Positions 391 through 63,538 of a stretch of DNA of 64,000 nt are shown here, piece after piece (the first letter of the stretch is position 1; the number at the start of each line of letters is the position of its first letter). Origin of the DNA: Squalus acanthias (lineage: Eukaryota); assembly GCA_030390025.1 (NCBI GenBank), contig CM059453.1:12586001-12650000 (forward strand). Direction: 5' to 3'. Below the pieces are notes generated by a model. That model saw nothing but the letters and a program-made list of their open reading frames with translations, did no database searches and had not been told where the DNA came from. The translations under genes and the position numbers were made by a program.

Positions 391-426
391 GATTGGATGA
401 TACCACGAAAACTCCAGGTGGAGGAG
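391..426 (+). CDS. microexon 1, class C' (GLDDTTKTPGGG)
   Basis: gttgcag|36 nt|gttagc. Confidence 0.8.
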
Positions 427-12934: not shown

Positions 12935-15900
12935 CTCGCATTTATCTAGCGCCTTTCGCGATCACAGGACGAACCAAGCCATTCTGAGCAATGATGATGG
13001 TCATCATGATGGTGATATTGATTGTGAAATTGATGATGATGGTGAGGGATTGCATGATCGTGATGTTGCTGGTGATAACAATGGTGATGTTTATGTTGAT
13101 GTTGTTGATGGTGATTTTGAAAATGCTGTTGGTGATGGTGATTGAGATAGCGATAAATGATGGTGACAGTGAAGGTTAAAATGAAGTTGATCATGGTGCT
13201 GATGATGCTGGTGCTGATGGAAATCTTTAAAAATGGTGACGAATTTGCTAATGGTGAGGATGTTGATAATAATGGTGATGGTGCTGTTGATGATGATGGT
13301 GATGGTGATGCTGCTGATGTTGGTAATGATGGTAATAACAATGAATGTGACAAATGTAACGGTTATTATTTTATTTTTCTTATATCCGTGATAATTCGCA
13401 AAGTAAAGCTACATGCACATGTAACTTGGCCAAATTGCAATTTGCAACAGATCACATTTTCTCTCAGAGATGCATTCTACTTCAGAAACATAGTGAATGA
13501 TAATTCTGTTGGTTGATCATATAAAATGGAGAGAATCACAAAGGAAGCTTGTGTATCACTTCACCCCATTGTCTTATCAAGTGACGTCATTGGAAAGGAC
13601 AATCATGAGAAGTGTTCGAATGGCTACCTGAGGAAATGCATTTCACCCCCAAGAGCTTCACCATTGACTGGATGTACCAATTGAAGAATGATTTGCAATG
13701 AAAACGTAACGATTTGCAGCTGAAACCCTGTTTGTGTGGGATGCCTGTAGGTCTCTGTTTTTTTTGTTGCAGGATTGGATGATACCACGAAAACTCCAGG
13801 TGAGGAGGTTAGCTCACGATGAACAGTGCTGGGTTTGTCACTCATTTGGGGCGCTACTGCTAAACAGAGAGGTATCACGTTGGTGCCAATTTTGCGTTGG
13901 TGTTTATATTCAACAGAACTAAATATCAGGCAGCGGAAACTATCGCCCCCATTTTGCGCTTAAGCACAAAACGAGGTTCCATGATAATTCCTCTGTAAGG
14001 GATGATTTAAAGTCTCTTTTGTATTACAGCAAATTAAATAACGAGGGTCGTGATTGGAAATGGGCGAAGACACCACATTGGCGCAATCTCTTTCGGAATC
14101 CTTCATAGTATTTAGGTTGAATTGAACACAATACCACCTATGTCCAATTTCACACCTAAAACTCTGAGCGGAAATCTGAACGCCAGCAAATGACTAATAT
14201 GACATAACTGGAAATGTCAGGTAGCTCTTTAGCAATGAAATGTTTGAAACGGTAATTTCTGTATTCCAGAACAAGGTGCAACCAAAGAAGCGTTGAAAGA
14301 TTTAGGTAACAAAATGTTTTCTGCCTGTAGAGTACTTTGGTACAGTTATAAGGTACAACAGCCCAATCCTTTGCTTGACAATAATTAAAAGTATATAAGG
14401 TTCAAAGGCTATGACACAAGTTTGTTTTCGTTAGAAATCCCATGTTATACTTTATTACCTCCAGATTAGGCTACTCCAATGCTGTCCCAGCCAGATCCTC
14501 GCTTTGCAAATTCCGAAAACATCAGCTCACAGTAAAGTCTGCAACTGCTTCCTAACTCACAGCTATTTCCATTCACCTATCACCCCTACTTCGCTGACTT
14601 GATTTGGCCACCAGTACGACAACACTGCGATTTTAAAGTTTAGGTCCCTCCAAAGCCTGATGCTCTCCCTATCACTGTAACCTCCAGTAGCCCGATAACA
14701 ATCAGAGATATCTGTGCTCCTTCAATTACGTCCTCTTGTGTCTCCTCAATATTCATCGCTCGACCGTTGACCATGCCTTCATCCGCCTTGGCCATAAGCT
14801 CTGGAATTCCCTGCCTGAACCTCTCCACCTCAACACAGCATCTCCTTTTAAAGTGTTCCTCAATCATAGAATCATGGAAGATAGGAGCAGATGTAGGCCA
14901 TTCGGCCCCTCTAGCCTGCTCCGCCATTCAATGCGATCATGGCTGATAATCCAAATTCAGTACCCTGCCCTGCTTTCTCCCCATATCCCTTGATCCCTTT
15001 AGACTTAAGAAATATATCCAACTCCTTCTTAAATCTATTTATTGAATTGGCCTCTACTGCCTTCTGTGGCATAGAATACCATAGGTTCACCACTCTCTGG
15101 GTGAAGAAATTCCTCCTATTTTCTGTCCTAAATGGCTTACCCCTTATCGTTAGAATGTGACCCCTGGTTCTGGACTCCACGAACATCGGGAACATCCTTC
15201 ATGCATCTAGTTTGTCCTGTCCTGTCAGAATTTTATAAGTTTCAATGTGATCCCCTCTCATTCTTCTAAACTCCAGCGAGTATAAGCCCAGTCGACCCAA
15301 TCTCTCTTCATACGTCATTCCTGCCATCCCAGGTATCAGCCTTGTGAATCTTCGCTGAACTGCTTCCATGGCAAGAACATCCTTCCTCAGATAAGGCGAC
15401 CAAAACTGCACACAGTACTCAAGGTGTGGTCTCACCAAGGCCCTGTGCAAAACACACCTCTTTGACCTGTCCTGATATCTCCTTATGTTCTCGGATTCAC
15501 TCTTTGCTCAACATCGTAACAGTTAAGAGATTTGCGATATTTCTGTACTTTGAAATTGGCTATATAAATGCACGTTGTTGCTGTAATATTGGAATGTTAT
15601 TAAGATAGAACTGTTAATCAGTGAAGACGCATAATTAATAATTGGTTACTTGATAATAACACAGCACTGTGCGATAATAAGCGAGTGAACTTATACAGAA
15701 AAATGAATATTGGAATTCGCCTTTTGAGGTATTTCCAAAAGGGCGGTATCGAATCGGCGCCCATTTATACCCCCACCAGTTATTCAGTTCCTTGAATTTG
15801 GACTTATCTAACCATCAAGCGGGGCGTATAACAGGCGGCCGGTACAATACCACCCATTTAGCGCTCTCTTAAACAGGAAGATCTTTCGACACAGGACTTT

Positions 15901-35582: not shown

Positions 35583-38500
35583 CTTGCATTTATCTAGCTC
35601 CTTTCGCGATCACAGGACGACCCAAGGTGTTTCGGGTAATGATGATGGTCATCATGCTGGTGATATTGATCATGATCCTGATGATGATGTTGAGGAATTG
35701 CATGATGGTGATGGTGATAGTGATAACAATGTTGATGTTTATGGTAATGATGTTGTTGGTGATGGAGATGGTGACAATGCTGTTGGTGATGCTGATTGAA
35801 ATAATGATAAATGCTGGTGACGGTGAAGGTTAAGATGAAGTTGACCATGGTGCTGATGATGGTGGTGATGATGGTAACCTTGATGAAGATGTTGACGAAG
35901 TTGCTATTGGTGAGGATGCTGATAATAATGGTGATGATGCTGTTGAGGATGATGATGGTAACAATGAATGCGACAAAGGTAGAGGTCATTATTTTATTTT
36001 TCTTATATCTGTGATAATTCTCAAAGAAAAGCATCATGCATATGCAATTTGTATCAGACCTACTTTTTCTCTGAGAGATGCAGAACATTCTACTTCAGAA
36101 ACATAGTCAATGATAATTCTGTTGGTTGATCATATAAAATGGAGGGAATCACATCGGAAGCTTGTGCAGCACTTCACACGATTGTCTTTTCAATTGACGT
36201 CCTTGGAATGGACAATCATGAGGAGTGTTCGATGCGGTATCGAGGAAATGCATTTCACCCCCAAAAGGTTCACCATTGACTGGATGTACCAATTGAAGGA
36301 TGATTGCAATTAAAACCTAACAATTTGCATCTATATAGCGCCATTAACATAATAACATACCCCAGCCGCATACACTGAGAATCATGAAGAGATATTAAGA
36401 CTGGAGATCAAAAACAACGTGATAGGTTCGACGATGCGTTCGCCAATGATGGTGCGAAGTCTACGCGGCCAGAATTGGAGGAAGAGATCTGTGGGCGTTT
36501 AATGCCGGAGGAGGTTTCAGAGGTAGGGAGGGGGCGCAGACAGAGAAGGATGTGGTGAAAAGGTGAGAAATTGAAACATTTTGATCTCAGCATCATGGCC
36601 TCTGTAAAAGCAATAAGAGAGGTGTACTTGAAATCGGAATCCATGTCCGTATGGGATGCCTGAAGGGCTCTGATCTTTTTTGTTGCAGGACTGGATGAGA
36701 CCACGAAAACTCCAGGTGGAGGAGTTTCGCACTCAATGAACAGTGCTGGGGTTGTCACTCGTTTGGGGCGCTACTGCTAAACAGAGCGGTATCACATTGG
36801 TGCCAATTATGCATTGGTGTTTATATTCATTGGAACTAAATATCAGCCAGCCGATATGATAACGACCATTTCTACCATAGTTCCACTGTAAGGGATGAGA
36901 TAAAGTCTCCTTTGTATTACAGCTGATTATAAAAAGAGGGCCGACATTGGAAATTGGCGAAGACACCAAATTGGCGGAATGTCTTTTGGCATCTTTCAGA
37001 GGCTTCGGCTCTATTGAGCACAATACCGCCCAATTCCAATTTCACACCTAAGTCTCTGAGGGGAAATCTGAACTGCAGCAAATGGCTAGTATAACATAAC
37101 TGGAAATGTCAGGAAGCGCTTTAGCAATGAAATGTTTGAAACGGTTATTATTTCTTTATTCCAGAACCCGGTGCATCCAAAGCAGCTTTGAAAGATTTAG
37201 GTAAGAAAGTCTGTAGAGTACTTTTGTACAGTTATAAACTACAACAGCACAATACTTTGCTTGACAATAATTATAATGAAGCAAAGGTTCAAAGGTTGTG
37301 ACGCAAGCATGTCTTTGTTAGAAAAACCTTGTTATTTTTATTATCTCCAGACTCGACTATTCCAATGCTGTCCCGGCCGGACTCCCACTTTGCTCATTCC
37401 GAAAACTTCAGCTCACAGTAAAGTCTCCAGCCTGCATCCCAACTCACAACTAGTTCCATTCAACCATCACCATTATCTGGCTGAATTGCATTGGCACCCG
37501 GTCCCACTACACCGCGATTTTAAAGTTTAATTCACTCCCTGGCCTGAGGCCCTCTCGATCTCTGTAAAGTCCAGCAGAACATTCATAGCCCCCACCCGAT
37601 ATTCACTTCCTTTAATTTGGACTGATTTACATATCAAGCGGGGTCTATAATAGGCGGCCGGTACAATAGCACCTTAAACATCTTAAACAGGAAGATTTTT
37701 CGACACAGCATGTGCTAAAATTTTCCTAATATAGCAAGTAAGCATATGATTGGGTGACGTCCTGTGTCGTACAGAAAAACACAGCCAATCACAACTTGCA
37801 TTGTTAAACTACATTCTTGGTAATAAACTTTCCTGTGTGTTCTCAAATAAATTCCTCGCTATTTCCAGAAGAGAAACTGAAAGCAACAGAAGATGGTAAT
37901 TGATTTTGAAATTCCCTGTTTACAAATTCTTTATAATTGGAATTAATAAGAACATAGGAGCAGGATTAGAATATTAAGCCACTCGGGCTTTTTCCCCATA
38001 CCTATACTGAACAATGTTCCCTCAAAAAGTGAAACAGAAAAGAGAAATGTTAAAAATGAAATTAAACACGACGGTGGTGGCATTTTTCTAATGATGTTGA
38101 GTTTCATGATATTAATGATGATGGCAAAGGTGATGATGATGCTGACTGTTGTCCTGGTGCTGGTGATGCTGACGGTTATGTTCATGGTGATGGGAATGTT
38201 AATGATGAGCATCATTGTTGGTGAAAAATGAATTCACTCGAGTCTGTCTCAAAGCAGAAGATCACAGTTTAATTAACAGAGCTCTCTGGGAGAAGAGTCA
38301 TAGATCCTGCGATCCAGAGATTCACTTCTCGTCCTTACAGGTATCAAAACTTATTTTATACATTATAGGGTCGGGTACAAAACTTCCTCACCCGATTACA
38401 TTTCCCCAGCAACAACTTTTCATTATAACACATCATTTTTTACTTCCTAACCGAAACTATAAACATCGAAATGTGGTCAGCATTGTCTAGTATTACTGTC

Positions 38501-50500: not shown

Positions 50501-53500
50501 GTTGATGAATAGATAGCCAAGAGAAGCTGGTGTTGTTCTCTTTAGAGCAGAGAAGGTTGAGAGGAGATTAAATAGAGGCGTTCAAAATCATGATGGGTCG
50601 AGACCGAGTATATAGACAGAAACTGTTCCAATTGGCTAAAGAATCCAGACCAAGAGGACACAGTTAAAATGTGATTGGCAAAAGAACCAAAGTCGACATT
50701 TAGAATACTTTATTTCCAAAGTGAGCAGTTAGGATCTTGAAAGCATTGCCTGAAAGTATGGTAGAGTCAGACTCAATCGTGGCTTTCAATACGGAATTGA
50801 TTAATTACCTGAAAGAATAAAACATGAAGGGGAACAGGGGAAGGGCTGGTGAGTGGGACAAGCTGAAGTGCTCTTTCAAAGAGCAGGCATGGGTTCGACG
50901 GGCCGAATGACCTTCTGTGCTGTAAACATTCTATGATCCTATTATTATATGATCACACCGGAAGCCTCATCTGCTGTCAGCCCTATTTCATCTTTTGGAC
51001 AACAGTGTACAGAACAATTAGGAGCATTGTTTGCTGGGCTAGCGAATGAATATGTTACATCCCAAAATAGTCATTAATGACTGGATGTACCAACTGAACA
51101 TGAATCGAAAACATAAAGAAGGAACCTGCCTCCATATAGCGCCTTTAAAATAATAAAATGCCCAATGCTCTTCACAGGAGCAATATCAAACACTATGTGC
51201 CAAATAGACACTTCAAGTGAGAATAGGATATCTGCCCTATTGATAAGACGAAGTGATAGGGTTTAAGGAGCGACTTCAATTATGAGAAAGTGGTAGAGAG
51301 GGGGGATAGGTTTTGGGGAAGTAATACCAGAGATCAAGGCTTAGGTATCTGAAGGTACGGCCGCCAAAAGTTGGATCGATGGAAATTCGTGGATCTGTAA
51401 GAAGCCAAAATTGGAGGAGTGTAGAGATTTCGACGTGTTGAAGGTCTGGAGGAGGTGACAGAGATAGGGGCGAGTGTCACCACGAAGGTATTGTAAAAAA
51501 AAGGATGATATTTTGATAAATTCTCAGCTCCACATCTTGGCATCTGTATTTGGTGCATTGAACTGAGAATCGCTCTTTGTATGGTGGCCTAAAGAGCTTT
51601 GTCATTATTCATTGTAGAACTGGAAGAGTACAAGAAAACTCCAGATGGACAAGGTTAGGACATTATGTGGAGCGGTGGGGTAGAAATTCCTCTTGGCTGG
51701 AGGCGGTAAACGAGCAGTTATTAATTTGTCAGATGTTGATGCTGAAGTCAATCAAAGTGAATATCGTGCGGGTCACATTACAGGAGACCTATACGCTAAG
51801 GCCAGTTTTACACTAAAGCCCATCATCGAATTGCTATACTGGTTCTGCCCAATATTAAGGAGGAGTTAAAGTTACCTTTATATTACAGTGGCATGAATAC
51901 CTAGGCGTGAAATTGGACAAGGGTGGGTAATGCCATATTCTCAGAATCTCCTTTGCGCCCGTTGCAAGACGCGCCCTACATTCAGTTCTTTGAAGTCAAT
52001 GGAACTGATAACGGCGTGTTGTATATAACGGGTGACTGATGCAATAAGGCCCGTTATGCGTGCCCGGACTTTTCCAATTGCACACCTCAATCTCTGACGG
52101 GCAATCTGATGAAGGAGTTTCAGCCTGAACCAACTGGTTTATGGTGAGTGTATGCTGCTTCCCTGTGAAGCAATATTCGCTGCAAAAATCACTGCTCCCA
52201 AGAGAAAGTGACACAATACAATATTTAGAATAAGAGCAGCTGAATTCAACCTGCTTTCCCGGGACAATATTTATCCTCAAATCAACAACACCAAAATTCA
52301 AATGATTATCCGCTCATTTATTTCATTTCGTTTTGTGGGAGATTGCTGCGCACAGATTGGCTGCCACGTTTCCAACATTACAACTGTGGCTACGCATCAA
52401 ATATAATTAACTGGCTGTGACTCGTCTTCGGACGCCTGGAGGTCATGAAAGGCACGATAGAAAACACGTTGTTTCATTTTTAACACGTCCTCTGCGCAAT
52501 TGTAACTGACAAGTTATTCACAAAATTTTGGAGCTCTGTGCAAACTTGGGGGTGAAATGTAACGAATGTCTATTGAAATGGATGAGATGTAATGTTTATC
52601 GTTGTTTATTCCAGTACTCGCTGCATGTAAAGAGATATTGAAGAATACAGGTAAGGAGTGGGATGTCTATCCATACAGAAATTTGGAAAGTTATAGTGCA
52701 TAACAGAATAAATTATTTACAGGACTCAAAATAATGCAATCTTTCAGTGTGCGATAACAGTGTTAGCTTTCCCTTCTTATTTTACATGAAAACCTGTCTC
52801 TAAAATTCTAAAGCTGTCCTTAACCATATTCACACAATTTCCCTTTCAAAATTCCACGATGTGCTCGTTGACCTGTATTGGCTCCGGTTCGAGCAACATA
52901 TTTGTCTTAAATCTGTCATCCTTGGGGACAAAATATTCAGTGTCTCCTGAATCTATATATTGCTGTAACATTCGCTAAATTGACAAATATCCGAGATTTT
53001 GCATTCATCCAATTCCATCCGCCAATACCTCTTGTGCATGCACCTATTTTGATCTCTCCATCCTTGACATCTGTGCCTTCTGCCGCTTTCATCCTAAGCT
53101 CTGGAAACAGATGCCTGAACGAATTGCCTCTCCTCCTCTCTCTATGCCTTTAATTCGCTCTTTAAAAATGAGTGCTTTGATCAAGCTATTGTCCACATGC
53201 CCTAATAAATGAAAACGGTGTAAATACGAGAGAGGGGAACGAGGATCGAAAGGGAACTGATAAACACTTTCTGTAAATGTAGGGACCAAAGTTAATCAGG
53301 CCATGAAAAAGCAAAAGAAGGACTCGGACTAATTTCGATAGGAACAGAACTGAAAAGCAGACACTGAGTAACAGATTTGTTTAGAACTTTAGGCTGAGCG
53401 CTCTTGAAATACTGTGCAAAGTTATGGTCTCCATATTATAAAAATAATATCGAGTCCCAATGGAAACTGTAAAAAATGGTTACAGGTGCGATTCTTGAAC

Positions 53501-56500
53501 TGAGATTCCTGAACGTGGGTCTGAAAGGAATAGAAGATTAAACGGTTTTGTCTGAGACGAAATATGATGGGTTAGGGCGCATGAGGAGCATAAATATCGG
53601 CATGTTGGGCCGAAAGTCTGTTTTCTAAGCTATACTTTGTATGATTGGCAATGAAGTGTTGTAAATAACAAATAGCGAAACAGAAGTTGCTTTTTACGAT
53701 TGACATTCTTGGAAATATTAATTCCTGTTGATTCACAAATTAAATGATTTGCTACTTTGCAGAAGATAAGTTGAAAGCAACGGAAGAAGGTAATTGATTT
53801 TGTATTCATTGTTGATAAATTAATTTCTAATCTATATGGTTCCTTTCCCTCATACTTGACATTCCGTTGTTTCCAAAATTCAACTGATCCACATTAGGGA
53901 AGGAATGTTGGATATGTTACTCCGACTATCTCTTTATTAATAGGTTTTTGAAACCTGTAGAAAGGTGGATAGCGGGTGTATGTGTTAAGGTCATGAATTT
54001 CTATTGCAATGTAGGAGCTAAAACGTCTCATTTGCGTTATTGCAGAACTCGCTGCATGCAAAGAAACTTTAAAAGATGCCGGTAAGAGAATGGAATTATT
54101 CTGTGTTTAAAAAATCTATTGCACAGTAATGTTTTAAATTGCCTAAGTATAAAGCAAATAATGCAAGAAAGAAACAATGCAAAAAAGCAAGCATGAAAGA
54201 AAGAAAGAAAGAATGAAAGAAAGAAAGATAGAAAGAATGGTTCAAAGATAGAGAGAAAGAAAGAAGGATATCTAGAAAGAAAGAAAGATAGAAAGAAAGA
54301 AAGAAAGACAGAGAGAAAGAAAGGAAGAAAGCCTCGAAATTATCTGGCGCCTTGTGCGATCACAGGACGACCCAAGGTGTTGCGGGTAATGATGATATTG
54401 CTCGTGATCTTGATGATTATGCTGAGGGACTGCATGATCGTGATGTTGATAGTGACAATAATGGTGATATTTGTGGTGATGATGTTGATGGTGATGGTGA
54501 TGTTGAGAATGCTGTTGATGATTTTGGTTGAAATAGTGATAAATGATGGAGACGGTGAAGATTAAGATGAAGTTGATTATGGTGCTGATGATGGTGGTGA
54601 TGATGGAAATATTGATGAAGATGGTGACGAAGTTGCTAATGGTGAGGAGGTTGATAACACTGATGATGGTGGTGTTGATGATGATGATGTTCGTAATGAT
54701 GATGATAATAAGGAATATGACGAAGGTACCGGTTATTATTTTATTTTACTTATATCTATGATAATTCTCAAAGTAAAGCTTCATGCAATTGTAAATTGGC
54801 AAAATTACTCTTTGGATCAGATCGGCTTTTTCTGTGAGAGATGCAGAACATTCTACTTCTGAAACATAGAGGATTGTAATCCTCTTATGTGATCACATAA
54901 AATGGAGAGAATCACATAGGAAGCTTGTGTAGCACTTCACGTGTCGCCTTTTCAATTGACGTCATTGAAATGGACAATCAAGTGATTGATCGATGTGCTA
55001 CCGAAAAAATGCATTTCACCCCAATATGAACGCCATTGGCTGAATGTGCCAATTGAAGGATGATTGCAAGCGTAACCTAAAAACCTGTATTTTTATAGCG
55101 TTTAACATAGTGATATACCCCTCGACGCTGACACTGAGAGATATAAACAGATAGTAAGACTTGAGAAGAAAAACAAAGAGGTAGATTTGACGCAGCGGCC
55201 GTCAATGATGGAGCGAAGTTCACGCGGTCAGAATTGGAGGAAGAGATCTGTGTGGGGTTTAATGCTGGATGAGGTTACAGAGGTAGGCAGGGGGCGAGGC
55301 CAGAGTGGGATGTGGTGAAAAGGTCAGCATTGGAACAATGTTGATCTCAGCATCAGGGCATCTGTAAATGGAATAAGGGATGTCCACCAGAAATTCGTAT
55401 CCATGTTTGTACGGGATGCCTGAAGCTCTCCGTTATTATTCGTTGCAGGACTGGATGATTCCACGAAAACCCCAGGTGGAGGAAGTTAGCACAAAATGAA
55501 TTGCAGCTGATTAAATAACGAGGGCCGACATTGCAAATGGGCGAAGACACCAAATTGGCGGAATCTTTTTCGAAATCCTTCCAAGGACTTCGGGTTTGTT
55601 GAACAATATGGAATGGATTACCGGCAGGGTCGTATAACGGGCGATAGATGCAACACCGCTCGCTTTTCTTCCCCGCTATTAGCCAAATTCACCCCTAAAT
55701 ATCTGAGCGTAAATCTGACAAGCAGCAAATTGCTAGTATGACATAACTGGAAATATCAGGAAGCACTTTAATAATGAAAGGTTTTGTACAGTTATTATTT
55801 CTGTATTCCAGAACAAGGTGCATCCAAAGGAGCGTTGAAAGATTTAGGTAAAAAAGGATTTTCTGCCTGTAGAGTCCTTTTGTACAGTTATAATCTACAA
55901 CAGCTCATTCCTTTGCTTGAAAACATTTATAATTAAGTAAAGGTTCAAAGGGCTGTGCCACAAGTGTGTCTCAGCCAATCACAACTTGCTGTGTTGAACT
56001 GCATTCTGGGTAATAACCTTTCCTGTGTGTTCTGAAATAAATTCCTCGCTACTTACAGAAGAGAAACTCAAAGCAACAGAAGACGGTAATTGATTTTTAA
56101 TTTCAGTGTTTACAAATGCATTCTAATTGGAATTAATAAGAACATAGGATCAGGAGAAGTACATTGAGCCACTCGGGCTTTTTGCCCCATATATTGAACA
56201 ATGTTCCCCCAAACTTTGAAACTGAAAAAGAAATGTTGCAATATAAATTAAACGCGACCGTGGCGAAATGGTGGAGAATCAGAGAGCACCGCTTTAAATT
56301 GATTTGCAAAGGAACCAAATGCGACATGAAGAAAAAAATGTTGCTGACAGCGAGTTCTTCACATCTGGAATGCACTGCCTGAAAGAGTGGTGAAGGTAGA
56401 CTCAATCATTGCGATCAAAAGTCAACTGGCTAAGTACCTGAAGGAAAAAATGACGAAGGGAAAGAGGGAAATGAAGGGGGAGTGGGACTGGCTGAAGTGC

Positions 56501-59500
56501 TCTAGCAGACAGCTGGCATGGGCTCGACCGGCCGAATGACCTCCGTCTCTGCTGTTAATTTTCTATGAACCTGTTATTGACCGATCACATCAGAAGCCTC
56601 TTCTGTACTCATTACTATTTCATCTTTTGAACGTCAAGGTAAAGAAGAATTAGGAAGGGTGTTTGATAGACTAGAGATTGAATATATTTCATCACAAAAT
56701 ATTCATTATTGACTGGATGTACCAGCGGAAGGAAAATCGCCAATATACTGAAATAACCTGCCTCTATACTTGTCTTTAACATAATAAAATGCTCCAAGGC
56801 GCCTCACAGGTGCATTATCAAAGTGCATGTGTCAAATAGACAGTTCAAGTGATATTAGAGTAGTGCAGAGATATGGATGTGTTGAAGGGCTGTAGGAGGA
56901 AACAGAGACAGGGGCGAGTGTCGTCATAAAGGATTTGTAATAAAGGATGATGTTTTGAAAAATTCTCAGATCCACATCTTGGCATCTGTAGTTGGTGCTT
57001 TTAAATCAGAATCTCTCTTTGTATAGGTTGCCTAAAGAGCTTTGTCATTATTCTTCGCAGAACTGGAAGAGTACAAGAAAACTCCAGATGGACAAGGTTA
57101 GGACATTATGTAGAGTGCTGGGGTAGAAATTCGACTTGGCTGGGGCGGTAAACGAGCATTTATCACATTGGCAGATCTTGCTGCTGAAGTCAATCAAAGT
57201 GAATATCATGCGGGTCAAATTACAGGAGGCCTATACGGTAAGGCCAGTTTTACACCAAAGCCCAACATCTGATTCCTATACTGGTCCTTCTCACTATTAA
57301 GGAGGAGTTAAATTTCTCTTCACATTACAGTGGGTTGAAAACCTAGGCGAGAAATTGGACATGGGAGGTCTTGGCATATTCGCAGAATCTCCCTTTGCTC
57401 CCGTTTTCAGACACGCCCTATATTCAGATCTTCGAAGTGAATGGAACTGATAACGGCGAGTTGCACATAACGGGTAACTGATGCTTAGGGCCCGTTATGC
57501 GTGACCGGCCATTTCCAATTTCACACCTCAATCCCTGACGGGCAATCTGTTAAAGGAGCTTCAGCAGCAACCAACTGGTTTATCGTAAATGTTAGTTGCT
57601 TTCCTGTGAAGCAATATTGGCTGGAAAAATTACTTTTCCCGAGGAAAACTGACACAATGCAATATTTAGAAAACGAGCAGATGAATTCTACCTGTTTTTC
57701 CAGGGACAATATTTATCCCTCAAACTACATCACTAAAAAACAACATATTTTCTGGTCATTTATTTCATTTTATGTTGTGCGAGATTGCTGTGTGTAAATT
57801 GGCTGCCGCAATCCCAACGTTACAACTGTGAATACGCTTCAAATATAAGTCACTGGCTGTGACTCGTCTTCGAGCGTCTGGAGTTGGTGAAAGGCACGAT
57901 AGAAAACACGTTGTTTCATTTTTAACACGTCCTCTGCGCAATTGTAACTGACAAGTTATTCACAAAATTTTGGAGCTCTGTGCAAACTTGGGGGTGAAAT
58001 GTAACGAATGTCTATTGAAATGGATGAGATGTAATGTTTATCGTTGTTTATTCCAGTACTCGCTGCATGTAAAGAGATATTGAAGAATACAGGTAAGGAG
58101 TGGGATGTCTATCCATACAGAAATTTGGAAAGTTATAGTGCATAACAGAATAAATTATTTACAGGACTCAAAATAATGCAATCTTTCAGTGTGCGATAAC
58201 AGTGTTAGCTTTCCCTTCTTATTTTACATGAAAACCTGTCTCTTAAATTCTAATGCTGTCCTTAACCATATTCACACAATTTCCCTTTCAAAATTCCACG
58301 ATGTGCTCGTTGACCTGTATTGGCTCCGGTTCGAGCAACATATTTGTCTTAAATCTGTCATCCTTGAGGACAAAATATTCAGTGTCTCCTGAATCTATAT
58401 ATTGCTGTAACATTCGCTAAATTGACAAATATCCGAGATTTTGCATTCATCCAATTCCATCCGCCAATACCTCTTGTGCATGCACCTATTTTGATCTCTC
58501 CATCCTTGACATCTGTGCCTTCTGCCGCTTTCATCCTAAGCTCTGGAAACAGATGCCTGAACGAATTGCCTCTCCTCCTCTCTCTATTCCTTTAATTCAC
58601 TCTTTAAAAATGAGTGCTTTGATCAAGCTATTGTCCACATGCCCTAATAAATGAAAACGGTGTAAATACGAGAGAGGGGAACGAGGATCGAAAGGGAACT
58701 GATAAACACTTTCTGTAAATGTAGGGACCAAAGTTAATCAGGCCATGAAAAAGCAAAAGAAGGACTCGGACTAATTTCGATAGCAACAGAACTGAAAAGC
58801 AGACACTGAGTAACAGATTTGTTTAGAACTTTAGGCTGAGCGCTCTTGAAATACTGTGCAAAGTTATGGTCTCCATATTATAAAAATAATATCGAGTCCC
58901 AATGGAAACTGTAAAAAATGGTTACAGGTGCGATTCTTGAACTGAGATTCCTGAACGTGGGTCTGAAAGGAATAGAAGATTAAACGGTTTGTCTGAGACG
59001 AAATATGATGGGTTGGGGCGCATGTGGAGCATAAATATCGGCATGTTGGGCCGAAAGTCTGTTTTCTAAGCTTTACTTTGTATGATTGGCAATGAAGTGT
59101 TGTAAAAAACAAATAGCGAAACAGAAGTTGCTTTTTACGATTGACATTCTTGGAAATATTAATTCCTGTTGATTCACAAATTAAATGATTTGCTACTTTG
59201 CAGAAGATAAGTTGAAAGCAACGGAAGAAGGTAATTGATTTTGTATTCATTGTTGATAAATTAATTTCTAATCTATATGGTTCCTTTCCCTCATACTTGA
59301 CATTCCGTTGTTTCCAAAATTCAACTGATCCACATTAGGGAAGGAATGTTGGATATGTTACTCCGACTATCTCTTTATTAATAGGTTTTTGAAACCTGTA
59401 GAAAGGTGGATAGCGGGTGTATGTGTTAAGGTCATGAATTTCTATTGCAATGTAGGAGCTAAAACGTCTCATTTGCGTTATTGCAGAACTCGCTGCATGC

Positions 59501-62500
59501 AAAGAAACTTTAAAAGATGCCGGTAAGAGAATGGAATTATTCTGTGTTTAAAAAATCTATTGCACAGTAATGTTTTAAATTGCCTAAGTATAAAGCAAAT
59601 AATGCAAGAAAGAAACAATGCAAAAAAGCAAGCATGAAAGAAAGAAAGAATGAAAGAAAGAAAGATAGAAAGAATGGTTCAAAGATAGAAAGAAAGAAAG
59701 AAGGATATCTAGAAAGAAAGAAAGATAGAAAGAAAGAAAGACAGACAGAGAGAAAGAAAGGAAGAAAGCCTCGAAATTATCTGGCGCCTTGTGCGATCAC
59801 AGGACGACCCAAGGTGTTGCGGGTAATGATGAGATTGCTCGTGATCTTGATGATTATGCTGAGGGACTGCATGATCGTGATGTAGATAGTGACAATAATG
59901 GTGATATTTGTCGTGATGATGTTGAGGGTGATGGTGATGTTGAGAATGCTGTTGATGATTTAGGTTGAAATAGTGATAAACGATGGTGACGGTGAAGATT
60001 AAGATGAAGTTGATTATGGTGCTGATGATGGTGGTGATGATGGAAATATTGATGAAGATGGTGACGAAGTTGCTAATGGTGAGGAGTTTGATAATACTGA
60101 TGATGGTGGTGTTGATGATGATGATGTTCGTAATGATGATGATAATAAGGAATATGACGAAGGTACCGGTTATTATTTTATTTTACTTATATCTATGATA
60201 ATTCTCAAAGTAAAGCTTCATGCAATTGTAAATTGGCAAAATTACTCTTTGGATCAGATCGGCTTTTTCTGTGAGAGATGCAGAATATTCTACTTCTGAA
60301 ACATAGAGGATGGTAATCCTCTTGTGTGATCACATAAAATGGAGAGAATCACATAGGAAGCTTGTGTAGCACTTCACGTGTCGCCTTTTCAATTGACGTC
60401 ATTGAAATGGACAATCAAGTGATTGATCGATGTGCTACCGAAAAAATGCATTTCACCCCAATATGAACGCCATTGGCTGAATGTGCCAATTGAAGGATGA
60501 TTGCAAGCGTAACCTAAAAACCTGTATTTTTATAGCGTTTAACATAGTGATATACCCCTCGACGCTGACACTGAGAGATATAAACAGATAGTAAGACTTG
60601 AGAAGAAAAACAAAGAGGTAGATTTGACGCAGCGGCCGTCAATGATGGAGCGAAGTTCACGCGGTCAGAATTGGAGGAAGAGATCTGCGTGGGGTTTAAT
60701 GCTGGATGAGGTTACAGAGGTAGGCAGGGGGCGAGGCCAGAGCGGGATGTGGTGAAAAGGTCAGCATTGGAACAATGTTGATCTCAGCATCAGGGCATCT
60801 GTAAATGGAATAAGGGATGTCCACCAGAAATTCGTATCCATGTTTGTTTGGTTTGCCTGAAGCTCTCCGTTATTATTCGTTGCAGGACTGGATGATTCCA
60901 CGAAAACCCCAGGTGGGGGAGGTTAGCACAAAATGAATTGCAGCTGATTAAATAACGAGGGCCGACATTGCAAATGGGCGAAGACACCAAATTGGCGGAA
61001 TCTTTTTCGAAATCCTTCCAAGGACTTCGGGTTTGTTGAACAATATGGAATGGATTACCGGCAGGGTCGTATAACGGGCGATAGATACAACACCGCTCGC
61101 TTTTCTTCCCCGCTATTAGCCAAATTCACCCCTAAATATCTGAGCGTAAATCTGACAAGCAGCAAATTGCTAGTATGACATAACTGGCAATATCAGGAAG
61201 CTCTTTAACAATGAAAGGTTTTGTACAGTTATTATTTCTGTATTCCAGAACAAGGTGCATCCAAAGGAGCGTTGAAAGATTTAGGTAAAAAAGGATTTTC
61301 TGCCTGTAGAGTCCTTTTGTACAGTTATAATCTACAACAGCTCATTCCTTTGCTTGAAAATATTTATAATTAAGTAAAGGTTCAAAGGGCTGTGGCACAA
61401 GTATGTCTCAGCCAATCACAGCTTGCTGTGTTGAACTGCATTCTGGGTAATAAACTTTCCTGTGTGTTCTGAAATAAATTCCTCGCTACTTACAGAAGAG
61501 AAACTCAAAGCAACAGAAGACGGTAATTAATTTTTAATTTCAGTGTTTACAAATGCATTCTAATTGGAATTAATAAGAACATAGGATCAGGAGAAGTACA
61601 TTGAGCCACTCGGGCTTTTTGCCCCATATATTGAACAAAGTTCCCCCAAACTTTGAAACTGAAAAAGAAATGTTGCAATATAAATTAAACGCGACCGTGG
61701 CGAAATGGTGGAGAATCAGAGAGCACCGCTTTAAATTGATTTTCAAAGGAACCAAATGCGACATGAAGAAAAAAATATTGCTGACAGCGAGTTCTTCACA
61801 TCTGGAATGCACTGCCTGAAAGAGTGGTGAAGGTAGACTCAATCATTGCTATCAAAAGTCAACTGGCTAAGTACCTGAAGGAAAAAATGACGAAGGGAAA
61901 GAGGGAAATGAAGGGGGAGTGGGACTGGCTGAAGTGCTCTAGCAGACAGCTGGCATGGGCTCGACCGGCCGAATGACCTCCGTCTCTGCTGTTAATTTTC
62001 TATGAAACTATTATTGACCGATCACATCAGAAGCCTCTTCTGTACTCATTACTATTTCATCTTTTGAACGTCAAGGTAAAGAAGAATTAGGAAGGGTGTT
62101 TGATAGACTAGAGATTGAATATATTTCATCACAAAATATTCATTATTGACTGGATGTACCAGCGGAAGGAAAATCGCCAATATACTGAAATAACCTGCCT
62201 CTATACTTGTCTTTAACATAATAAAATGCTCCAAGGCGCCTCACAGGTGCATTATCAAAGTGCATGTGTCAAATAGACAGTTCAAGTGATATTAGAGTAG
62301 TGCAGAGATATGGATGTGTTGAAGGGCTGTAGGAGGAAACAGAGACAGGGGCGAGTGTCGTCATAAAGGATTTGTAATAAAGGATGATGTTTTGAAAAAT
62401 TCTCAGATCCACATCTTGGCATCTGTAGTTGGTGCTTTTAAATCAGAATCTCTCTTTGTATAGGTTGCCTAAAGAGCTTTGTCATTATTCTTCGCAGAAC

Positions 62501-63538
62501 TGGAAGAGTACAAGAAAACTCCAGATGGACAAGGTTAGGACATTATGTAGAGTGCTGGGGTAGAAATTCGACTTGGCTGGGGCGGTAAACGAGCATTTAT
62601 CACATTGGCAGATCTTGCTGCTGAAGTCAATCAAAGTGAATATCATGCGGGTCAAATTACAGGAGGCCTATACGGTAAGGCCAGTTTTACACTAAAGCCC
62701 AACATCTGATTCCTATACTGGTCCTTCTCACTATTAAGGAGGAGTTAAATTTCTCTTCACGTTACAGTGGGTTGAAAACCTAGGCGAGAAATTGGACATG
62801 GGAGGTCTTGGCATATTCGCAGAATCTCCCTTTGCTCCCGTTTTCAGACACGCCCTATATTCAGATCTTCGAAGTGAATGGAACTGATAACGGCGAGTTG
62901 CACATAACGGGTAACTGATGCTTAGGGCCCGTTATGCGTGACCGGCCATTTCCAATTTCACACCTCAATCCCTGACGGGCAATCTGTTAAAGGAGCTTCA
63001 GCAGCAACCAACTGGTTTATCGTAAATGTTAGTTGCTTTCCTGTGAAGCAATATTGGCTGGAAAAATTACTTTTCCCAAGAAAAACTGACACAATGCAAT
63101 ATTTAGAAAACCAGCAGATGAATTCTACCTGTTTTTCCAGGGACAATATTTATCCCTCAAACTACATCACTAAAAAACAACATCTTTTCTGGTCATTTAT
63201 TTCATTTTATGTTGTGGGAGATAGCTGTGTGTAAATTGGCTGCCGCAATCCCAACGTTACAACTGTGAATACGCTTCAAATATAAGTCACTGGCTGTGAC
63301 TCGTCTTCGGGCGTCTGGAGTTGGTGAAAGGCACGATAGAAATGTCAGTTATTTCATTCTTGAAACGGCCACTGCACAATTGAAACTGACAAGGAATTCA
63401 CAAAGTTTCGGAAATCTGTATAAACTTGGGGGTGTTGGGCTGAAATGTAACGAATTTCTATTGAAGTGGATGGGATATAATGTTTTGTGTTGTGTATTCC
63501 AGTACTCGCTGAATGTAAAGAATTAGTGAAGAATGCAG
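391..63538 (+). CDS. Internal portion of an unidentified multi-microexon gene: 62 phase 1-1 exons of 27/36 nt encoding about 684-690 aa of repeated coiled-coil/hinge sequence
   Basis: Islands conserved across diverged repeat copies are bounded by pyrimidine-rich tract + AG and GT. Lengths are multiples of 3, exon order is fixed, there are no stops and many differences are synonymous. No start or stop codon in the window. Confidence 0.88.
888..923 (+). CDS. microexon 2, class A'' (DQGATKEALKDL)
   Basis: attccag|36 nt|gtaaaa. Confidence 0.85.
1060..1530 (+). mobile_element. Old degraded L2-type LINE 3' fragment (paralog at about 14440-14860)
   Basis: ttattacctccagattaggctattccaatgctgtcc resembles the L2 ORF2 'TSRLDYSNAL' region, followed by HITP/LHWLP-like remnants; frameshifted. 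Confidence 0.6.
1556..2060 (+). mobile_element. 5'-truncated CR1-type LINE (ORF2 C-terminus + 3' UTR)
   Basis: ORF 1555-1968 ([45 protein letters not shown]) and tail cctactcctgctcctatcttctatgtttctatg; absent from the paralogous site near 15515. Confidence 0.92.
2598..2624 (+). CDS. microexon 3, class B (EEKLKATED)
   Basis: attacag|27 nt|gtaaat. Confidence 0.85.
2678..2915 (-). mobile_element. Penelope-like element 3' terminal fragment with hammerhead-like motif
   Basis: Same sequence as the element at 24029-24433. The minus strand has CACCTGACGAAGGAGCAGCGCTCCGAAAG. Absent from paralogous introns. Confidence 0.7.
2925..3222 (-). mobile_element. Penelope-like element fragment (GIY-YIG endonuclease C-terminus + 3' UTR)
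   Basis: ORF 3059-3286(-) contains LRVRVLQGGLRDTRQRKIVEKKLIAKFCTHEGGLNR, typical of the PLE GIY-YIG C-terminal E..I...GLN motif. Confidence 0.8.
3310..3660 (+). repeat. Degenerate (GAT)n tract; paralogs at about 7260-7622, 12990-13345, 16215-16562, 19920-20203, 25055-25425, 30020-30376, 35635-35965, 38085-38680, 45005-45340, 50155-50510, 54385-54720, 59822-60155
   Basis: GAT/GGT/GCT/AAT triplet runs, always in introns that precede class C/C' exons. Confidence 0.9.
3669..4297 (+). mobile_element. Penelope-like element 3' fragment (GIY-YIG + 3' UTR)
   Basis: ORF 3674-3907 DRFAEHLRSVRK..PVACHFNS..EEQHLNFRLGTLQPSGLNIEF; same family as 16698-17351. Confidence 0.88.
4318..4507 (+). mobile_element. 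Short CR1-type LINE 3' end
   Basis: Matches the end of 1556-2060 and ends in (ctatgttt)n; starts with a duplicated gagttagatatatttctt. Confidence 0.85.
4510..4820 (+). mobile_element. Old degraded CR1 3' fragment duplicated with the array (also about 8550-8810, 17365-17625, 20215-20620, 26700-27000, 30390-30800, 46700-47000, 50520-50930, 56255-56560, 61690-62000)
   Basis: Translation FCSQRVVDIWNAxPERVV..AFKRELDNYLK resembles the CR1 ORF2 C-terminus; found in most B-to-C introns. Confidence 0.7.
5319..5354 (+). CDS. microexon 4, class C (ELEEYKKTQDGQ)
   Basis: ttcgcag|36 nt|gttagg. Confidence 0.85.
6060..6095 (+). CDS. microexon 5, class A (ALAECKELVKNA)
   Basis: attccag|36 nt|gttaga. Confidence 0.85.
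7045..7071 (+). CDS. microexon 6, class B (EDKLKATED)
   Basis: tttacag|27 nt|gtaagt. Confidence 0.88.
7785..8547. mobile_element. Non-autonomous DNA transposon (MITE), PIF/Harbinger-like
   Basis: TIRs ggccctgaaattcg ... cgaatttctgggcc, flanked by aat/att (3-bp TSD-like). Paralogous empty sites read tataatgtgatt. Confidence 0.75.
9486..9521 (+). CDS. microexon 7, class C (ELEEYKETPDGQ)
   Basis: atcgcag|36 nt|gttaga. Confidence 0.83.
10480..10515 (+). CDS. microexon 8, class A (VLAACKELLKNT)
   Basis: cttccag|36 nt|gtaagg. Confidence 0.88.
11604..12047 (-). mobile_element. Solo LTR
   Basis: Begins TGTT and ends AACA, with a 5-bp TSD ATGTG (11599-11603 / 12048-12052). AATAAA on the minus strand. 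Absent from paralogous introns. Confidence 0.8.
12325..12351 (+). CDS. microexon 9, class B (EEKLKATKE)
   Basis: tttacag|27 nt|gtaatt. Confidence 0.85.
12557..12592 (+). CDS. microexon 10, class A' (ELAACKETLKDA)
   Basis: attgcag|36 nt|gtaaga. Confidence 0.88.
12651..12880. other. Assembly gap (230 N)
   Basis: Run of N at the GAAA microsatellite position. Confidence 0.99.
13773..13799 (+). CDS. microexon 11, class C' variant, probably shortened to 27 nt (GLDDTTKTP)
   Basis: Acceptor gttgcag. A 1-nt deletion makes the usual gttagc donor give 35 nt but creates CCAG|gtgagg at 27 nt. Confidence 0.6.
14270..14305 (+). CDS. microexon 12, class A'' (EQGATKEALKDL)
   Basis: attccag|36 nt|gtaaca. 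Confidence 0.83.
14864..15447 (-). mobile_element. 5'-truncated CR1-type LINE
   Basis: ORFs 15199-15450(-) ([20 protein letters not shown]) and 14911-15195(-); inserted at cctcaa|aacacacc relative to unit 1. Confidence 0.92.
16060..16086 (+). CDS. microexon 13, class B (EEKLKATED)
   Basis: attacag|27 nt|gtaaat. Confidence 0.85.
16698..17351 (-). mobile_element. Penelope-like element 3' fragment with intact hammerhead motif
   Basis: Reverse-complement homolog of 3669-4297, flanked by the 13-bp direct repeat aacacagctttaa (16685-16697 / 17352-17364). Confidence 0.85.
16795..16831 (-). ncRNA. Minimal type I hammerhead ribozyme motif in PLE 3' UTR
   Basis: Minus strand AGTT-CTGACGA-A-AGGTC-TTC-GACCT-GAAA-CG-TT-AACT: core boxes, stem II, palindromic AACGTT and stem I AGTT/AACT. 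Confidence 0.7.
18146..18181 (+). CDS. microexon 14, class C (ELEEYKKTPDGQ)
   Basis: ttcgcag|36 nt|gttcgg (weak donor). Confidence 0.8.
18915..18950 (+). CDS. microexon 15, class A (ALAECKELVKNA)
   Basis: attccag|36 nt|gttaga. Confidence 0.85.
19834..19860 (+). CDS. microexon 16, class B (EDKLKATED)
   Basis: tttacag|27 nt|gtaagt. Confidence 0.88.
21290..21325 (+). CDS. microexon 17, class C (ELEEYKKTPDGQ)
   Basis: attgtag|36 nt|gttagg. Confidence 0.83.
22293..22328 (+). CDS. microexon 18, class A (VLAACKELLKNT)
   Basis: attccag|36 nt|gtaagg. Confidence 0.88.
23569..23595 (+). CDS. microexon 19, class B (EDKLKTTEE)
   Basis: tttacag|27 nt|gtaatt. Confidence 0.85.
24029..24473 (+). mobile_element. 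Penelope-like element terminal fragment with an inverted copy of its own end
   Basis: 161-bp inverted arms at 24029-24189 and 24273-24433; same family as 2678-2915. Confidence 0.75.
24075..24111 (-). ncRNA. Minimal type I hammerhead ribozyme motif
   Basis: Minus strand TCAC-CTGACGA-A-GGAGC-AGC-GCTCC-GAAA-GC-TT-GTGA; palindromic AAGCTT and stem I TCAC/GTGA. Confidence 0.7.
24745..24780 (+). CDS. microexon 20, class A' (ELAACKETLKDA)
   Basis: attgcag|36 nt|gtaaga. Confidence 0.88.
24873..25010. other. Assembly gap (138 N)
   Basis: Run of N at the GAAA microsatellite position. Confidence 0.99.
25896..25931 (+). CDS. microexon 21, class C' (GLDDSTKTPGGG)
   Basis: gttgcag|36 nt|gttagc; no internal GT in this copy. 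Confidence 0.83.
26257..26292 (+). CDS. microexon 22, class A'' (EQGASKGALKDL)
   Basis: attctag|36 nt|gtaaaa. Confidence 0.83.
26502..26528 (+). CDS. microexon 23, class B (EEKLKATED)
   Basis: cttacag|27 nt|gtaatt. Confidence 0.85.
27316..27351 (+). CDS. microexon 24, class C (ELEEYKKTPDGQ)
   Basis: ttcgcag|36 nt|gttcgg. Confidence 0.8.
27636..28243 (-). mobile_element. 5'-truncated CR1-type LINE
   Basis: C-terminal part of ORF 27735-28526(-) ([31 protein letters not shown]); (ataagaac)n tail; ccata on both sides. Confidence 0.92.
28924..28959 (+). CDS. microexon 25, class A (VLADCKELVKNA)
   Basis: attccag|36 nt|gttaga. Confidence 0.85.
29807..29833 (+). CDS. microexon 26, class B (EDKLKATED)
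   Basis: tttacag|27 nt|gtaagt. Confidence 0.88.
31488..31523 (+). CDS. microexon 27, class C (ELEEYKKTPDGQ)
   Basis: atcgtag|36 nt|gttcgg. Confidence 0.8.
32489..32524 (+). CDS. microexon 28, class A (VLAACKELLKNT)
   Basis: attccag|36 nt|gtaaga. Confidence 0.88.
33916..33942 (+). CDS. microexon 29, class B (EDKLKATEE)
   Basis: tttacag|27 nt|gtaatt. Confidence 0.85.
34088..35170 (+). mobile_element. DeuSINE (paralog of 23740-24610), interrupted by a MITE
   Basis: Aligns with 23740-24610 on both sides of the 34239-34925 insertion. Confidence 0.65.
34239..34925. mobile_element. Harbinger-like MITE related to 7785-8547, left tip deleted
   Basis: Inverted ends gatattccgatc ... gatcggaatatccggccc; shares the internal ctgggatcacgtgggccatgg and an AT-rich centre with 7785-8547. 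Confidence 0.7.
35302..35337 (+). CDS. microexon 30, class A' (DLAACKETLKDA)
   Basis: attgcag|36 nt|gtgaga. Confidence 0.85.
35410..35581 (+). repeat. (GAAA)n-type purine microsatellite; paralogs at about 12881-12932, 44660-44953, 54160-54330, 59600-59770
   Basis: gaaagaaa/gcaagaaa runs just downstream of class A' exons. Confidence 0.9.
36689..36724 (+). CDS. microexon 31, class C' with lost canonical donor (GLDETTKTP[GGG]); skipped, or ends at 36715
   Basis: Acceptor gttgcag intact. The usual gttagc donor reads tttcgc. An in-frame alternative, CCAG|gtggag, lies at 27 nt. Confidence 0.5.
37165..37200 (+). CDS. microexon 32, class A'' (EPGASKAALKDL)
   Basis: attccag|36 nt|gtaaga. Confidence 0.85.
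37869..37895 (+). CDS. microexon 33, class B (EEKLKATED)
   Basis: tttccag|27 nt|gtaatt. Confidence 0.85.
38216..38632 (-). mobile_element. Solo LTR, same family as 11604-12047
   Basis: TGTTGG...CCAACA ends with a 5-bp TSD ATCAT (38211-38215 / 38633-38637); inserted in a GAT tract. Confidence 0.82.
39002..39037 (+). CDS. microexon 34, class C (ELEEYKKTPDGQ)
   Basis: ttcgtag|36 nt|gttagg. Confidence 0.83.
40013..40048 (+). CDS. microexon 35, class A (VLAECKELVKNA)
   Basis: attccag|36 nt|gttaga. Confidence 0.85.
40751..41223 (-). mobile_element. 5'-truncated CR1-type LINE
   Basis: ORF 40921-41277(-) ([28 protein letters not shown]); same subfamily and tail as 27636-28243. Confidence 0.92.
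41889..41915 (+). CDS. microexon 36, class B (EDKLKATED)
   Basis: tttacag|27 nt|gtaagt. Confidence 0.88.
42127..42162 (+). CDS. microexon 37, class C (ELEEYKQTPDGQ)
   Basis: attgtag|36 nt|gttagg. Confidence 0.83.
43122..43157 (+). CDS. microexon 38, class A (VLAACKEILKNT)
   Basis: aatccag|36 nt|gtaagg. Confidence 0.86.
44268..44294 (+). CDS. microexon 39, class B (EDKLKATEE)
   Basis: tttacag|27 nt|gtaatt. Confidence 0.85.
44551..44586 (+). CDS. microexon 40, class A' (ELAACKETLKDA)
   Basis: attgcag|36 nt|gtaagg. Confidence 0.88.
44734..44871. other. Assembly gap (138 N)
   Basis: Run of N within the GAAA microsatellite. Confidence 0.99.
45889..45924 (+). CDS. microexon 41, class C' (GLDDSTKTPGGG)
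   Basis: gtttcag|36 nt|gttagc. Confidence 0.83.
46254..46289 (+). CDS. microexon 42, class A'' (EQGAAKGALKDL)
   Basis: attctag|36 nt|gtaaaa. Confidence 0.83.
46500..46526 (+). CDS. microexon 43, class B (EEKLKATED)
   Basis: cttacag|27 nt|gtaatt. Confidence 0.85.
47504..47539 (+). CDS. microexon 44, class C (ELEEYKKTPDGQ)
   Basis: ttcgcag|36 nt|gttagg. Confidence 0.85.
48508..48543 (+). CDS. microexon 45, class A (VLADCKELVKNA)
   Basis: attccag|36 nt|gttaga. Confidence 0.85.
49929..49955 (+). CDS. microexon 46, class B (EDKLKATED)
   Basis: tttacag|27 nt|gtaagg. Confidence 0.88.
51618..51653 (+). CDS. microexon 47, class C (ELEEYKKTPDGQ)
   Basis: attgtag|36 nt|gttagg. Confidence 0.83.
52615..52650 (+). 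CDS. microexon 48, class A (VLAACKEILKNT)
   Basis: attccag|36 nt|gtaagg. Confidence 0.88.
53763..53789 (+). CDS. microexon 49, class B (EDKLKATEE)
   Basis: tttgcag|27 nt|gtaatt. Confidence 0.85.
54046..54081 (+). CDS. microexon 50, class A' (ELAACKETLKDA)
   Basis: attgcag|36 nt|gtaaga. Confidence 0.88.
55449..55484 (+). CDS. microexon 51, class C' (GLDDSTKTPGGG)
   Basis: gttgcag|36 nt|gttagc; last exonic base is A, which weakens the donor. Confidence 0.7.
55812..55847 (+). CDS. microexon 52, class A'' ([E/K]QGASKGALKDL)
   Basis: attccag|36 nt|gtaaaa. Confidence 0.85.
56059..56085 (+). CDS. microexon 53, class B (EEKLKATED)
   Basis: cttacag|27 nt|gtaatt. Confidence 0.85.
57061..57096 (+). 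CDS. microexon 54, class C (ELEEYKKTPDGQ)
   Basis: ttcgcag|36 nt|gttagg. Confidence 0.85.
58057..58092 (+). CDS. microexon 55, class A (VLAACKEILKNT)
   Basis: attccag|36 nt|gtaagg. Confidence 0.85.
59204..59230 (+). CDS. microexon 56, class B (EDKLKATEE)
   Basis: tttgcag|27 nt|gtaatt. Confidence 0.85.
59487..59522 (+). CDS. microexon 57, class A' (ELAACKETLKDA)
   Basis: attgcag|36 nt|gtaaga. Confidence 0.86.
60886..60921 (+). CDS. microexon 58, class C' (GLDDSTKTPGGG)
   Basis: gttgcag|36 nt|gttagc. Confidence 0.8.
61249..61284 (+). CDS. microexon 59, class A'' (EQGASKGALKDL)
   Basis: attccag|36 nt|gtaaaa. Confidence 0.85.
61496..61522 (+). CDS. microexon 60, class B (EEKLKATED)
   Basis: cttacag|27 nt|gtaatt. 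Confidence 0.85.
62498..62533 (+). CDS. microexon 61, class C (ELEEYKKTPDGQ)
   Basis: ttcgcag|36 nt|gttagg. Confidence 0.85.
63503..63538 (+). CDS. microexon 62, class A (VLAECKELVKNA)
   Basis: attccag|36 nt|gttaga. Confidence 0.85.

Follow-up and report, generated by a model that had tools for sequence, protein, structure and literature searches.

An internal slice of a 2.1-Mb microexon array, likely one cartilaginous-fish gene, predicted to encode a hinged coiled coil with a terminal B30.2 domain

Enterophilins consist of a long heptad repeat, with heptads numbering in the tens, followed by a B30.2 domain, and they have no RING, Ig, or transmembrane part. The rod of titin is built from Ig/Fn3 modules. 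In the parts of the sources cited here, enterophilin-1 is described as interacting with SNX1 (PMC13749957), butyrophilins as carrying a few heptads and a B30.2 domain (PMC4046983), and chicken BG genes as having 13 to 37 exons, mostly of 21 nt, behind IgV and transmembrane exons, while the soluble tail of the BG zipper protein acts on actin-myosin (PMC5938342, PMC4046983). The same holds for the Schistosoma micro-exon genes, which are described as encoding small, mostly secreted proteins with signal peptides, where skipping gives variation (PMC4015677), and for titin, whose 363 exons in 283 kb are given as the human maximum (PMC12198301, PMC11931755).

The stretch of DNA analyzed here (the window) covers 64 kb, C30:12,586,001-12,650,000, of a 3.7 Gb genome. 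Our leading explanation, which we consider probable, is that the window lies inside a 2.1-Mb array that is likely one gene and that encodes a predicted soluble, ∼9,000-residue hinged coiled-coil dimer tethering a C-terminal B30.2 domain. Like the enterophilins, the array gene has a long heptad repeat and a B30.2 domain, and RING, Ig, and transmembrane parts were not found; the difference is one of scale, roughly 1,200 heptads as opposed to tens. It shares with chicken BG, as the cited parts describe it, a coiled coil made from many short exons, a split first codon, and a variable exon number, but its exons are hundreds of 27/36-nt units (21 nt in 2/404), it includes hinge exons, an Ig or transmembrane exon was not found, and it has a B30.2 domain, with which chicken BG is not described in those parts. 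Short phase-1 heptad exons followed by a B30.2 in a single last exon are also the layout of butyrophilins (BTN/BTNL), whereas these have few heptads, Ig domains, a transmembrane helix, and a B30.2 outside the array gene's clade. TRIM proteins (TRIM21/39/58, A33, bloodthirsty) likewise combine a coiled coil with B30.2, and database fragments of the family bear TRIM-like names, but a RING/B-box was not found in the array gene, its coiled coil is far longer, and its B30.2 clade is separate. Microexons make up most of the coding sequence both here and in the Schistosoma genes as described in the cited part, from which the array gene differs in its hydrophilic start, its thousands of codons, and its unrelated sequence. 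Titin, as described in the cited parts, is also a giant modular rod with hundreds of exons; the array has 404 in its contiguously read third alone, compared with titin's 363. A literature search covering few subscription journals found no description of the array gene, which we regard as a real, extreme form of the coiled coil plus B30.2 kind.

An AG…GT island scan, together with a similarity search seeded from exons, recovered 62 exons in the window, from 391 to 63538 and all on the plus strand. They fall into the following repeat units (window positions), among which two hinge exons are listed separately.

391..12592, plus strand: repeat unit 1, exons at 391, 888, 2598, 5319, 6060, 7045, 9486, 10480, 12325, 12557
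13773..24780, plus strand: repeat unit 2, exons at 13773 (27-nt form), 14270, 16060, 18146, 18915, 19834, 21290, 22293, 23569, 24745
25896..35337, plus strand: repeat unit 3, exons at 25896, 26257, 26502, 27316, 28924, 29807, 31488, 32489, 33916, 35302
36689..44586, plus strand: repeat unit 4, exons at 36689 (27-nt form), 37165, 37869, 39002, 40013, 41889, 42127, 43122, 44268, 44551
45889..54081, plus strand: repeat unit 5, exons at 45889, 46254, 46500, 47504, 48508, 49929, 51618, 52615, 53763, 54046
55449..59522, plus strand: repeat unit 6, without one C-A-B block, exons at 55449, 55812, 56059, 57061, 58057, 59204, 59487
60886..63538, plus strand: repeat unit 7, first five exons, at 60886, 61249, 61496, 62498, 63503
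13773..13799, plus strand: C' hinge exon, 1 base short before the distal donor; a strong in-frame 27-nt donor would keep the frame
36689..36715, plus strand: C' hinge exon, distal donor lost; in-frame internal GT at 27 nt

The exons measure 36 nt (n = 42) or 27 nt (n = 20) and sum to 2,052 nt, which is 3.2% of the window. All are in phase 1-1 and, joined by script, they read through 683 codons with 0 stops. The acceptor is CAG in 55 exons and TAG in 7, the donor is GT in 62/62, and the mean pyrimidine fraction upstream is 0.70. The exon classes follow the order C'-A''-B-C-A-B-C-A-B-A', with a full unit of 333 nt, and successive units contain 10, 10, 10, 10, 10, 7, and 5 exons. Introns range from 205 to 2,694 nt, with length differences of up to 2 kb between equivalent introns. 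The preliminary description had listed 62 symmetric 27/36-nt exons in a fixed class order, a stop-free reading of ∼690 aa, a coding share of about 3%, and kb-scale intron indels; the exon set was recovered exactly, every member AG…GT and phase 1-1, and the remaining figures agree with those given above. The two exons said to rely on an internal GT are the C' copies at 13773 and 36689, which have no in-frame GT at 36 nt and one at 27 nt. Several C' hinge exons (391, 55449, 60886, etc.) have an internal GT at 27 nt in addition to the donor at 36 nt, and therefore the Gly-rich hinge could exist in two lengths. AAAG-type microsatellites lie directly downstream of the A' exons in several units (35424-35581, 54185-54327, 59626-59764), and a GAT-rich low-complexity stretch occupies part of one intron (window ∼3330-3660).

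Where extended coordinates are given, they are approximately the C30 position minus 12,586,000. An in-frame ATG exon (C30:11,282,966) opens the array and a terminal B30.2/SPRY exon (C30:13,378,528) closes it, a span of 2,095,563 bp (2.096 Mb) in which the window sits mid-array and accounts for 3%. A contiguous 734 kb (extended -307937 to 419968) yielded calls for 404 exons 18-36 nt long, including 205 of 36 nt, 194 of 27 nt, and 2 of 21 nt, together ∼4,240 codons. The gaps between them have a median of 1.4 kb and a maximum of 12.4 kb, and no domain-sized exon was found in the 734 kb, retroelement frames aside. A strand control over the same 734 kb at equal threshold, using splice matrices trained on the array's own exons, returned 376 calls of 27/36 nt on the plus strand and 1 on the minus strand. 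Upstream samples (98 kb) gave 32 plus-strand and 1 minus-strand calls and downstream samples (35 kb) gave 11 and 0, with exons in most samples either side. Thus, the earlier suggestion that the array passes both window edges holds, and the array it described is real but spans 2.1 Mb, not 64 kb. Over the 0.94 Mb read (45% of 2.096 Mb), the calls total ∼465 exons, and sample densities extrapolate to 313 exons upstream (range 214-442) and 104 downstream (range 52-186). We estimate ∼800-840 exons and ∼9,000 aa for the whole array, an extrapolation that assumes continuity through the 55% of the span beyond the sequence read. All coding exons found other than the first and last are 18-36 nt long. 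Judged from its sequence, the 2.1-Mb same-strand array is likely one cartilaginous-fish gene. Many introns also carry a dispersed repeat on the minus strand (extended e.g. -14424, 80078, 144410) with a 30-nt exon-like segment and strong splice sites, and it accounts for 14/23 minus-strand calls.

The translation of the 404 exons is rich in Glu (18.6%), Lys (17.3%), and Leu (15.4%), and its hydrophobic residues have a period of 3.55 with a power of 18.5 versus 4.7 for shuffled sequence. Leu is found at fixed slots in 75-87% of exons. One core slot is Cys in 51% of the 36-nt exons; cytosolic rods do not usually have such a regular core Cys. The basic module, 36+27 nt, corresponds to 21 aa or three heptads, with an added Pro-containing exon in local variants; Pro spacings are mostly 30, 33, or 45 residues. 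In the window, C-A-B gives 33 residues, that is, ∼four heptads plus a short Thr-Pro-Asp-Gly hinge. The 111-aa unit proposed at the outset is therefore real locally, but it is a higher-order version of this module with Pro/Gly hinge exons. With a coiled-coil rise of ∼0.15 nm per residue, 9,000 residues would reach ∼1.3 micrometres. The predicted product resembles an enterophilin drawn out to extreme length, with a soluble coiled coil followed by B30.2.

The terminal exon (521 nt, phase 1, C30:13,378,008-13,378,528, plus strand) closes with a stop and encodes a B30.2 domain (SPRY PF00622, E 3e-15) whose best PDB matches are TRIM58 (5e-20) and BTN3A1 (2e-16). Among the 150/554 candidates scored, no other B30.2 lies on C30 between 9.90 and 13.37 Mb, and the nearest genomic relative is 84% identical (C30:9,899,685, minus strand). 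Reads of three small runs presumed to be RNA, mapped to 5 kb around the B30.2 exon, covered the flanking repeats and not the exon, and a look-up of RNA runs containing window 25800-35400 listed none; neither result has a bearing on expression. A C-type lectin end (CD23/CD209-like neck) was rejected, as PF00059 had no match on C30 among 150/232 candidates scored and the actual end is B30.2. Just downstream of the gene are frames that by eye resemble pieces of class A G-protein-coupled receptors (L086:7757-8360, L088:640-827, plus strand).

At the other end, minus-strand microexons at C30 10.31-11.22 Mb point to a paralogue of ∼1.34 Mb that lies head to head with the array. This paralogue (C30:9,899,685-11,240,388, minus strand) has the same exon-type order, a conserved ATG exon, and the 84% identical B30.2. 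Identity between the two arms is ∼70-82% on either side of a centre near 11,262.7 kb, where an inverted duplication likely gave rise to the paralogue. The first non-micro exon on the plus strand is 120 nt long (C30:11,282,928-11,283,047), with an in-frame ATG at 11,282,966, a hydrophilic head, and a phase-1 frame that is open upstream of the ATG; the ATG is conserved in the inverted paralogue at 11,240,365-388. Upstream of the ATG exon is a CpG-rich block with GC boxes that is 82% identical between the arms and in which no conserved reading frame was seen. We infer from its sequence that this block may be a promoter with a non-coding first exon.

The interval that begins past the inversion centre and ends at the ATG exon was covered completely. 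None of the 127 open stretches of at least 62 aa across this central region matched Ig, RING, or B-box; three matched reverse transcriptase and three gave weak, unrelated matches. No signal or transmembrane exon was found among splice-site candidates from the inversion centre to the ATG exon, a scan that a short exon with weak sites could escape. Butyrophilin-type IgC (PF22705) had no C30 match among the 150/175 candidates scored, which are mostly on C26, PF08205 matched C30 only at 6.35 and 6.50 Mb, and the V-set (PF07686) genome search was saturated, with 150/2,831 candidates scored. The neighbouring DNA, where the preliminary description advised looking for terminal exons, yielded a B30.2 exon; an Ig or transmembrane exon was not found in the central region, nor a lectin domain on C30 among the candidates scored.

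Relatives were collected with HMMER, run against 1.84 billion representatives, and with a profile search. Chondrichthyan models that share the array's B30.2 come from elephant shark (1,697 aa and 202-230 aa), catshark (358 and 945 aa), skate (295 aa), and basking shark (175 aa), under database names such as nuclear-pore anchor-like, TRIM39/58/69-like, and A33-like. In Pfam, SPRY alone was found in six relatives scanned and likewise in the 945-aa catshark model; RefSeq relatives (elephant shark, catshark, skate) show SPRY alone in Pfam or a coiled coil plus B30.2. The 358-aa catshark model aligns with the translation of several of the last microexons of the array gene and, as a database gene model, would lend indirect support to splicing in an orthologue. 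In the elephant-shark and skate models the N-terminus is a hydrophobic stretch, which an anchored or secreted form would fit; the 945-aa catshark relative has no such stretch at its start. The AlphaFold model of this relative, at low confidence (pLDDT 55), shows long helices broken by loops and a B30.2 that is not folded. In a first protein search for longer relatives, 417 candidates yielded none at 1e-20. For the elephant-shark model, the N-terminal 375 aa had no match in the genome, and the complete sequence matched nothing credibly in the 5' region of the array.

A tree was built from 85 B30.2 domains, with rows taken from the search returns: 9 of the array-gene clade, 18 butyrophilin, and 58 TRIM-labelled. 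In this midpoint-rooted tree with long branches, a 100/100 branch separates the array gene and eight relatives from the 18 butyrophilin and 58 TRIM-labelled domains. Named members of the clade are all chondrichthyan and include both elephant shark and elasmobranchs. Because Ig, transmembrane, RING, and B-box exons were not found and the B30.2 clade is separate, the array gene does not appear to be a BG, butyrophilin, or TRIM member. The lead toward BG and butyrophilins in the preliminary description is thus borne out by the terminal B30.2 and the symmetric phase-1 heptad exons, but not by an Ig or transmembrane exon, nor by the B30.2 itself, which falls outside the sampled butyrophilin and TRIM domains.

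Selection in the window was measured pairwise within exon classes, with flank pairs counted if they were <35% divergent. The values are pS 0.228, pN 0.057, and dN/dS 0.22, at a flanking intron divergence of 0.173, which agrees with the purifying selection proposed earlier. Distinct variants in the window comprise 22.5 synonymous, 23.5 non-synonymous, and 0 stops (synonymous excess p 0.006); classes A and A'' are far less constrained (pN/pS 0.66 and 0.73). Region-wide, single-step variants comprise 110 synonymous, 128 non-synonymous, and 0 stop changes, with 9.3 stops expected (p 8e-5), a synonymous excess at p 2e-8, and an omega-like ratio of 0.51. One calling step barred stop-containing exons; the similarity steps admitted them and found none. 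The donors of the 404 exons are GT in 403 and GC in 1. These results support, as first proposed, a microexon-built repeat protein of a cartilaginous fish, whose splicing is predicted.

Among ∼407 exon copies, four are damaged. Two 36-nt copies outside the window (extended -187790 and 99874) are 1 base short with splice sites intact, the copy at extended 86474 has lost its acceptor, and the copy at extended -38849 ends in T, which creates a stop at its junction. A recent tandem duplication has 27 differences in 2,452 nt, and near-identical repeat units have 0 indels in 2,452 nt and 2 in 2,791 nt; with so few indels, the damaged copies may be real rather than assembly errors. The two 1-base-short exons would truncate the protein if included, and a full-length product would need the damaged copies to be skipped. 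The last base is G in 400/404 exons and only 0.4% of all possible junctions create a stop, so exon skipping is almost always safe. The exons flanking the damaged copies on both sides remain stop-free.

Based on these observations, our current hypothesis is that the whole array would be transcribed and spliced as one transcript, in which skipping would be tolerated because nearly any exon joins any other in frame. Helical runs of ∼four heptads would be interrupted by Pro/Gly hinges, which in the window are exons C and C', and the chains would dimerise as a hinged coiled coil with B30.2 heads. The B30.2 binding domain could thereby be held up to ∼1 micrometre from the other end, as on a long tether or spacer, and the rod would lengthen by tandem exon duplication. 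The cellular job is the weakest step. By analogy with enterophilin and the BG zipper protein, we tentatively suggest an intracellular tether or filament.

The damaged copies could also be taken as signs that the locus is a pseudogene in decay, one that segmental duplication amplified and that has ceased to be expressed, and duplications as recent as the one above can mask decay. We find this scarcely credible in view of the absence of in-exon stops, the dN/dS of 0.22, the nearly uniform GT donors, and the intact ATG and B30.2 exons. A less drastic reading is that the locus is functional and the full-length protein is never made, with internal ends or frameshifted exons giving shorter coiled-coil products or with tandem genes sharing the span. 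An internal stop, polyadenylation exon, or second promoter could lie in the remaining 55%, the two frameshifted copies keep their splice sites, and the database models of relatives are only 202-1,697 aa long. However, the scored B30.2 candidates include no internal one, the 734 kb hold no domain exon, the exons on either side of the damaged copies lack stops, and the inverted paralogue keeps its exon-type order from ATG exon to B30.2 over 1.34 Mb, so that we judge this reading unlikely.

Two further alternatives concern what the protein does and how it begins. Anatomy is common to our leading explanation, a soluble tether, and to a disulfide-cross-linked structural filament in which B30.2 would serve assembly or anchoring; only the job differs, and a place in sperm accessory structures, cornified tissue, or a secretion is speculation. 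The regular core Cys, the hydrophobic N-termini of two database models, and the extreme repeat length with three paralogues would fit such a filament, yet a signal or transmembrane exon was not found between the inversion centre and the ATG exon, the array gene's N-terminus is hydrophilic, and the 945-aa catshark relative begins without a hydrophobic stretch; we consider it quite improbable. Even less likely, in our view, is a receptor of the butyrophilin/BG type, with Ig and transmembrane exons situated farther upstream that escaped the search. The butyrophilin tail, as described in the cited part of PMC4046983, also has phase-1 heptad exons followed by B30.2, the frame of the ATG exon is open upstream, and the V-set search scored a small part of its candidates (150/2,831). 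Against this reading, the fully read interval between the far side of the inversion centre and the ATG exon gave 0/127 Ig matches, the scored BTN-type IgC exons include none on C30 and sit mostly on C26, and the B30.2 clade is separate.

Returning to the explanation we prefer, a single gene for a hinged rod with a B30.2 head, its broadest form would be an undescribed chondrichthyan family of giant B30.2 rods, of which this member would be one 2.1-Mb transcript of ∼800 consecutive microexons, over double the exon number of titin, encoding a ∼1-MDa, micrometre-long coiled coil whose exon number sets its length like a molecular ruler; for this form we see the balance as even. If the array is one transcript, its exon count would be far above the 363 of human titin and consist almost solely of microexons too short for usual gene finders, which would account for the database entries of relatives being short models with unrelated names. 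The locus would let one ask, in a natural setting, how the spliceosome keeps hundreds of near-identical microexons in order and how proteins grow when symmetric exons duplicate, and it defines a B30.2 clade, spanning elephant shark and elasmobranchs, without the domain's usual Ig or RING partners.

A third array copy of at least 0.84 Mb is present at C1:101,463,712-102,308,582 (plus strand). The B30.2 search gave no C1 match among the 150/554 candidates scored and the ATG motif gave none on C1, so the ends of this copy have diverged, are missing, or went unlisted. On C26, apart from the C30 gene, there is a large cluster of ordinary B30.2 and butyrophilin-type IgC exons. On C30 itself, the scored candidates (150/554) include five further B30.2 exons at 9,604,829-9,852,479 (plus strand), 42-49% identical and 45-90 kb apart, which are possibly shorter family members.
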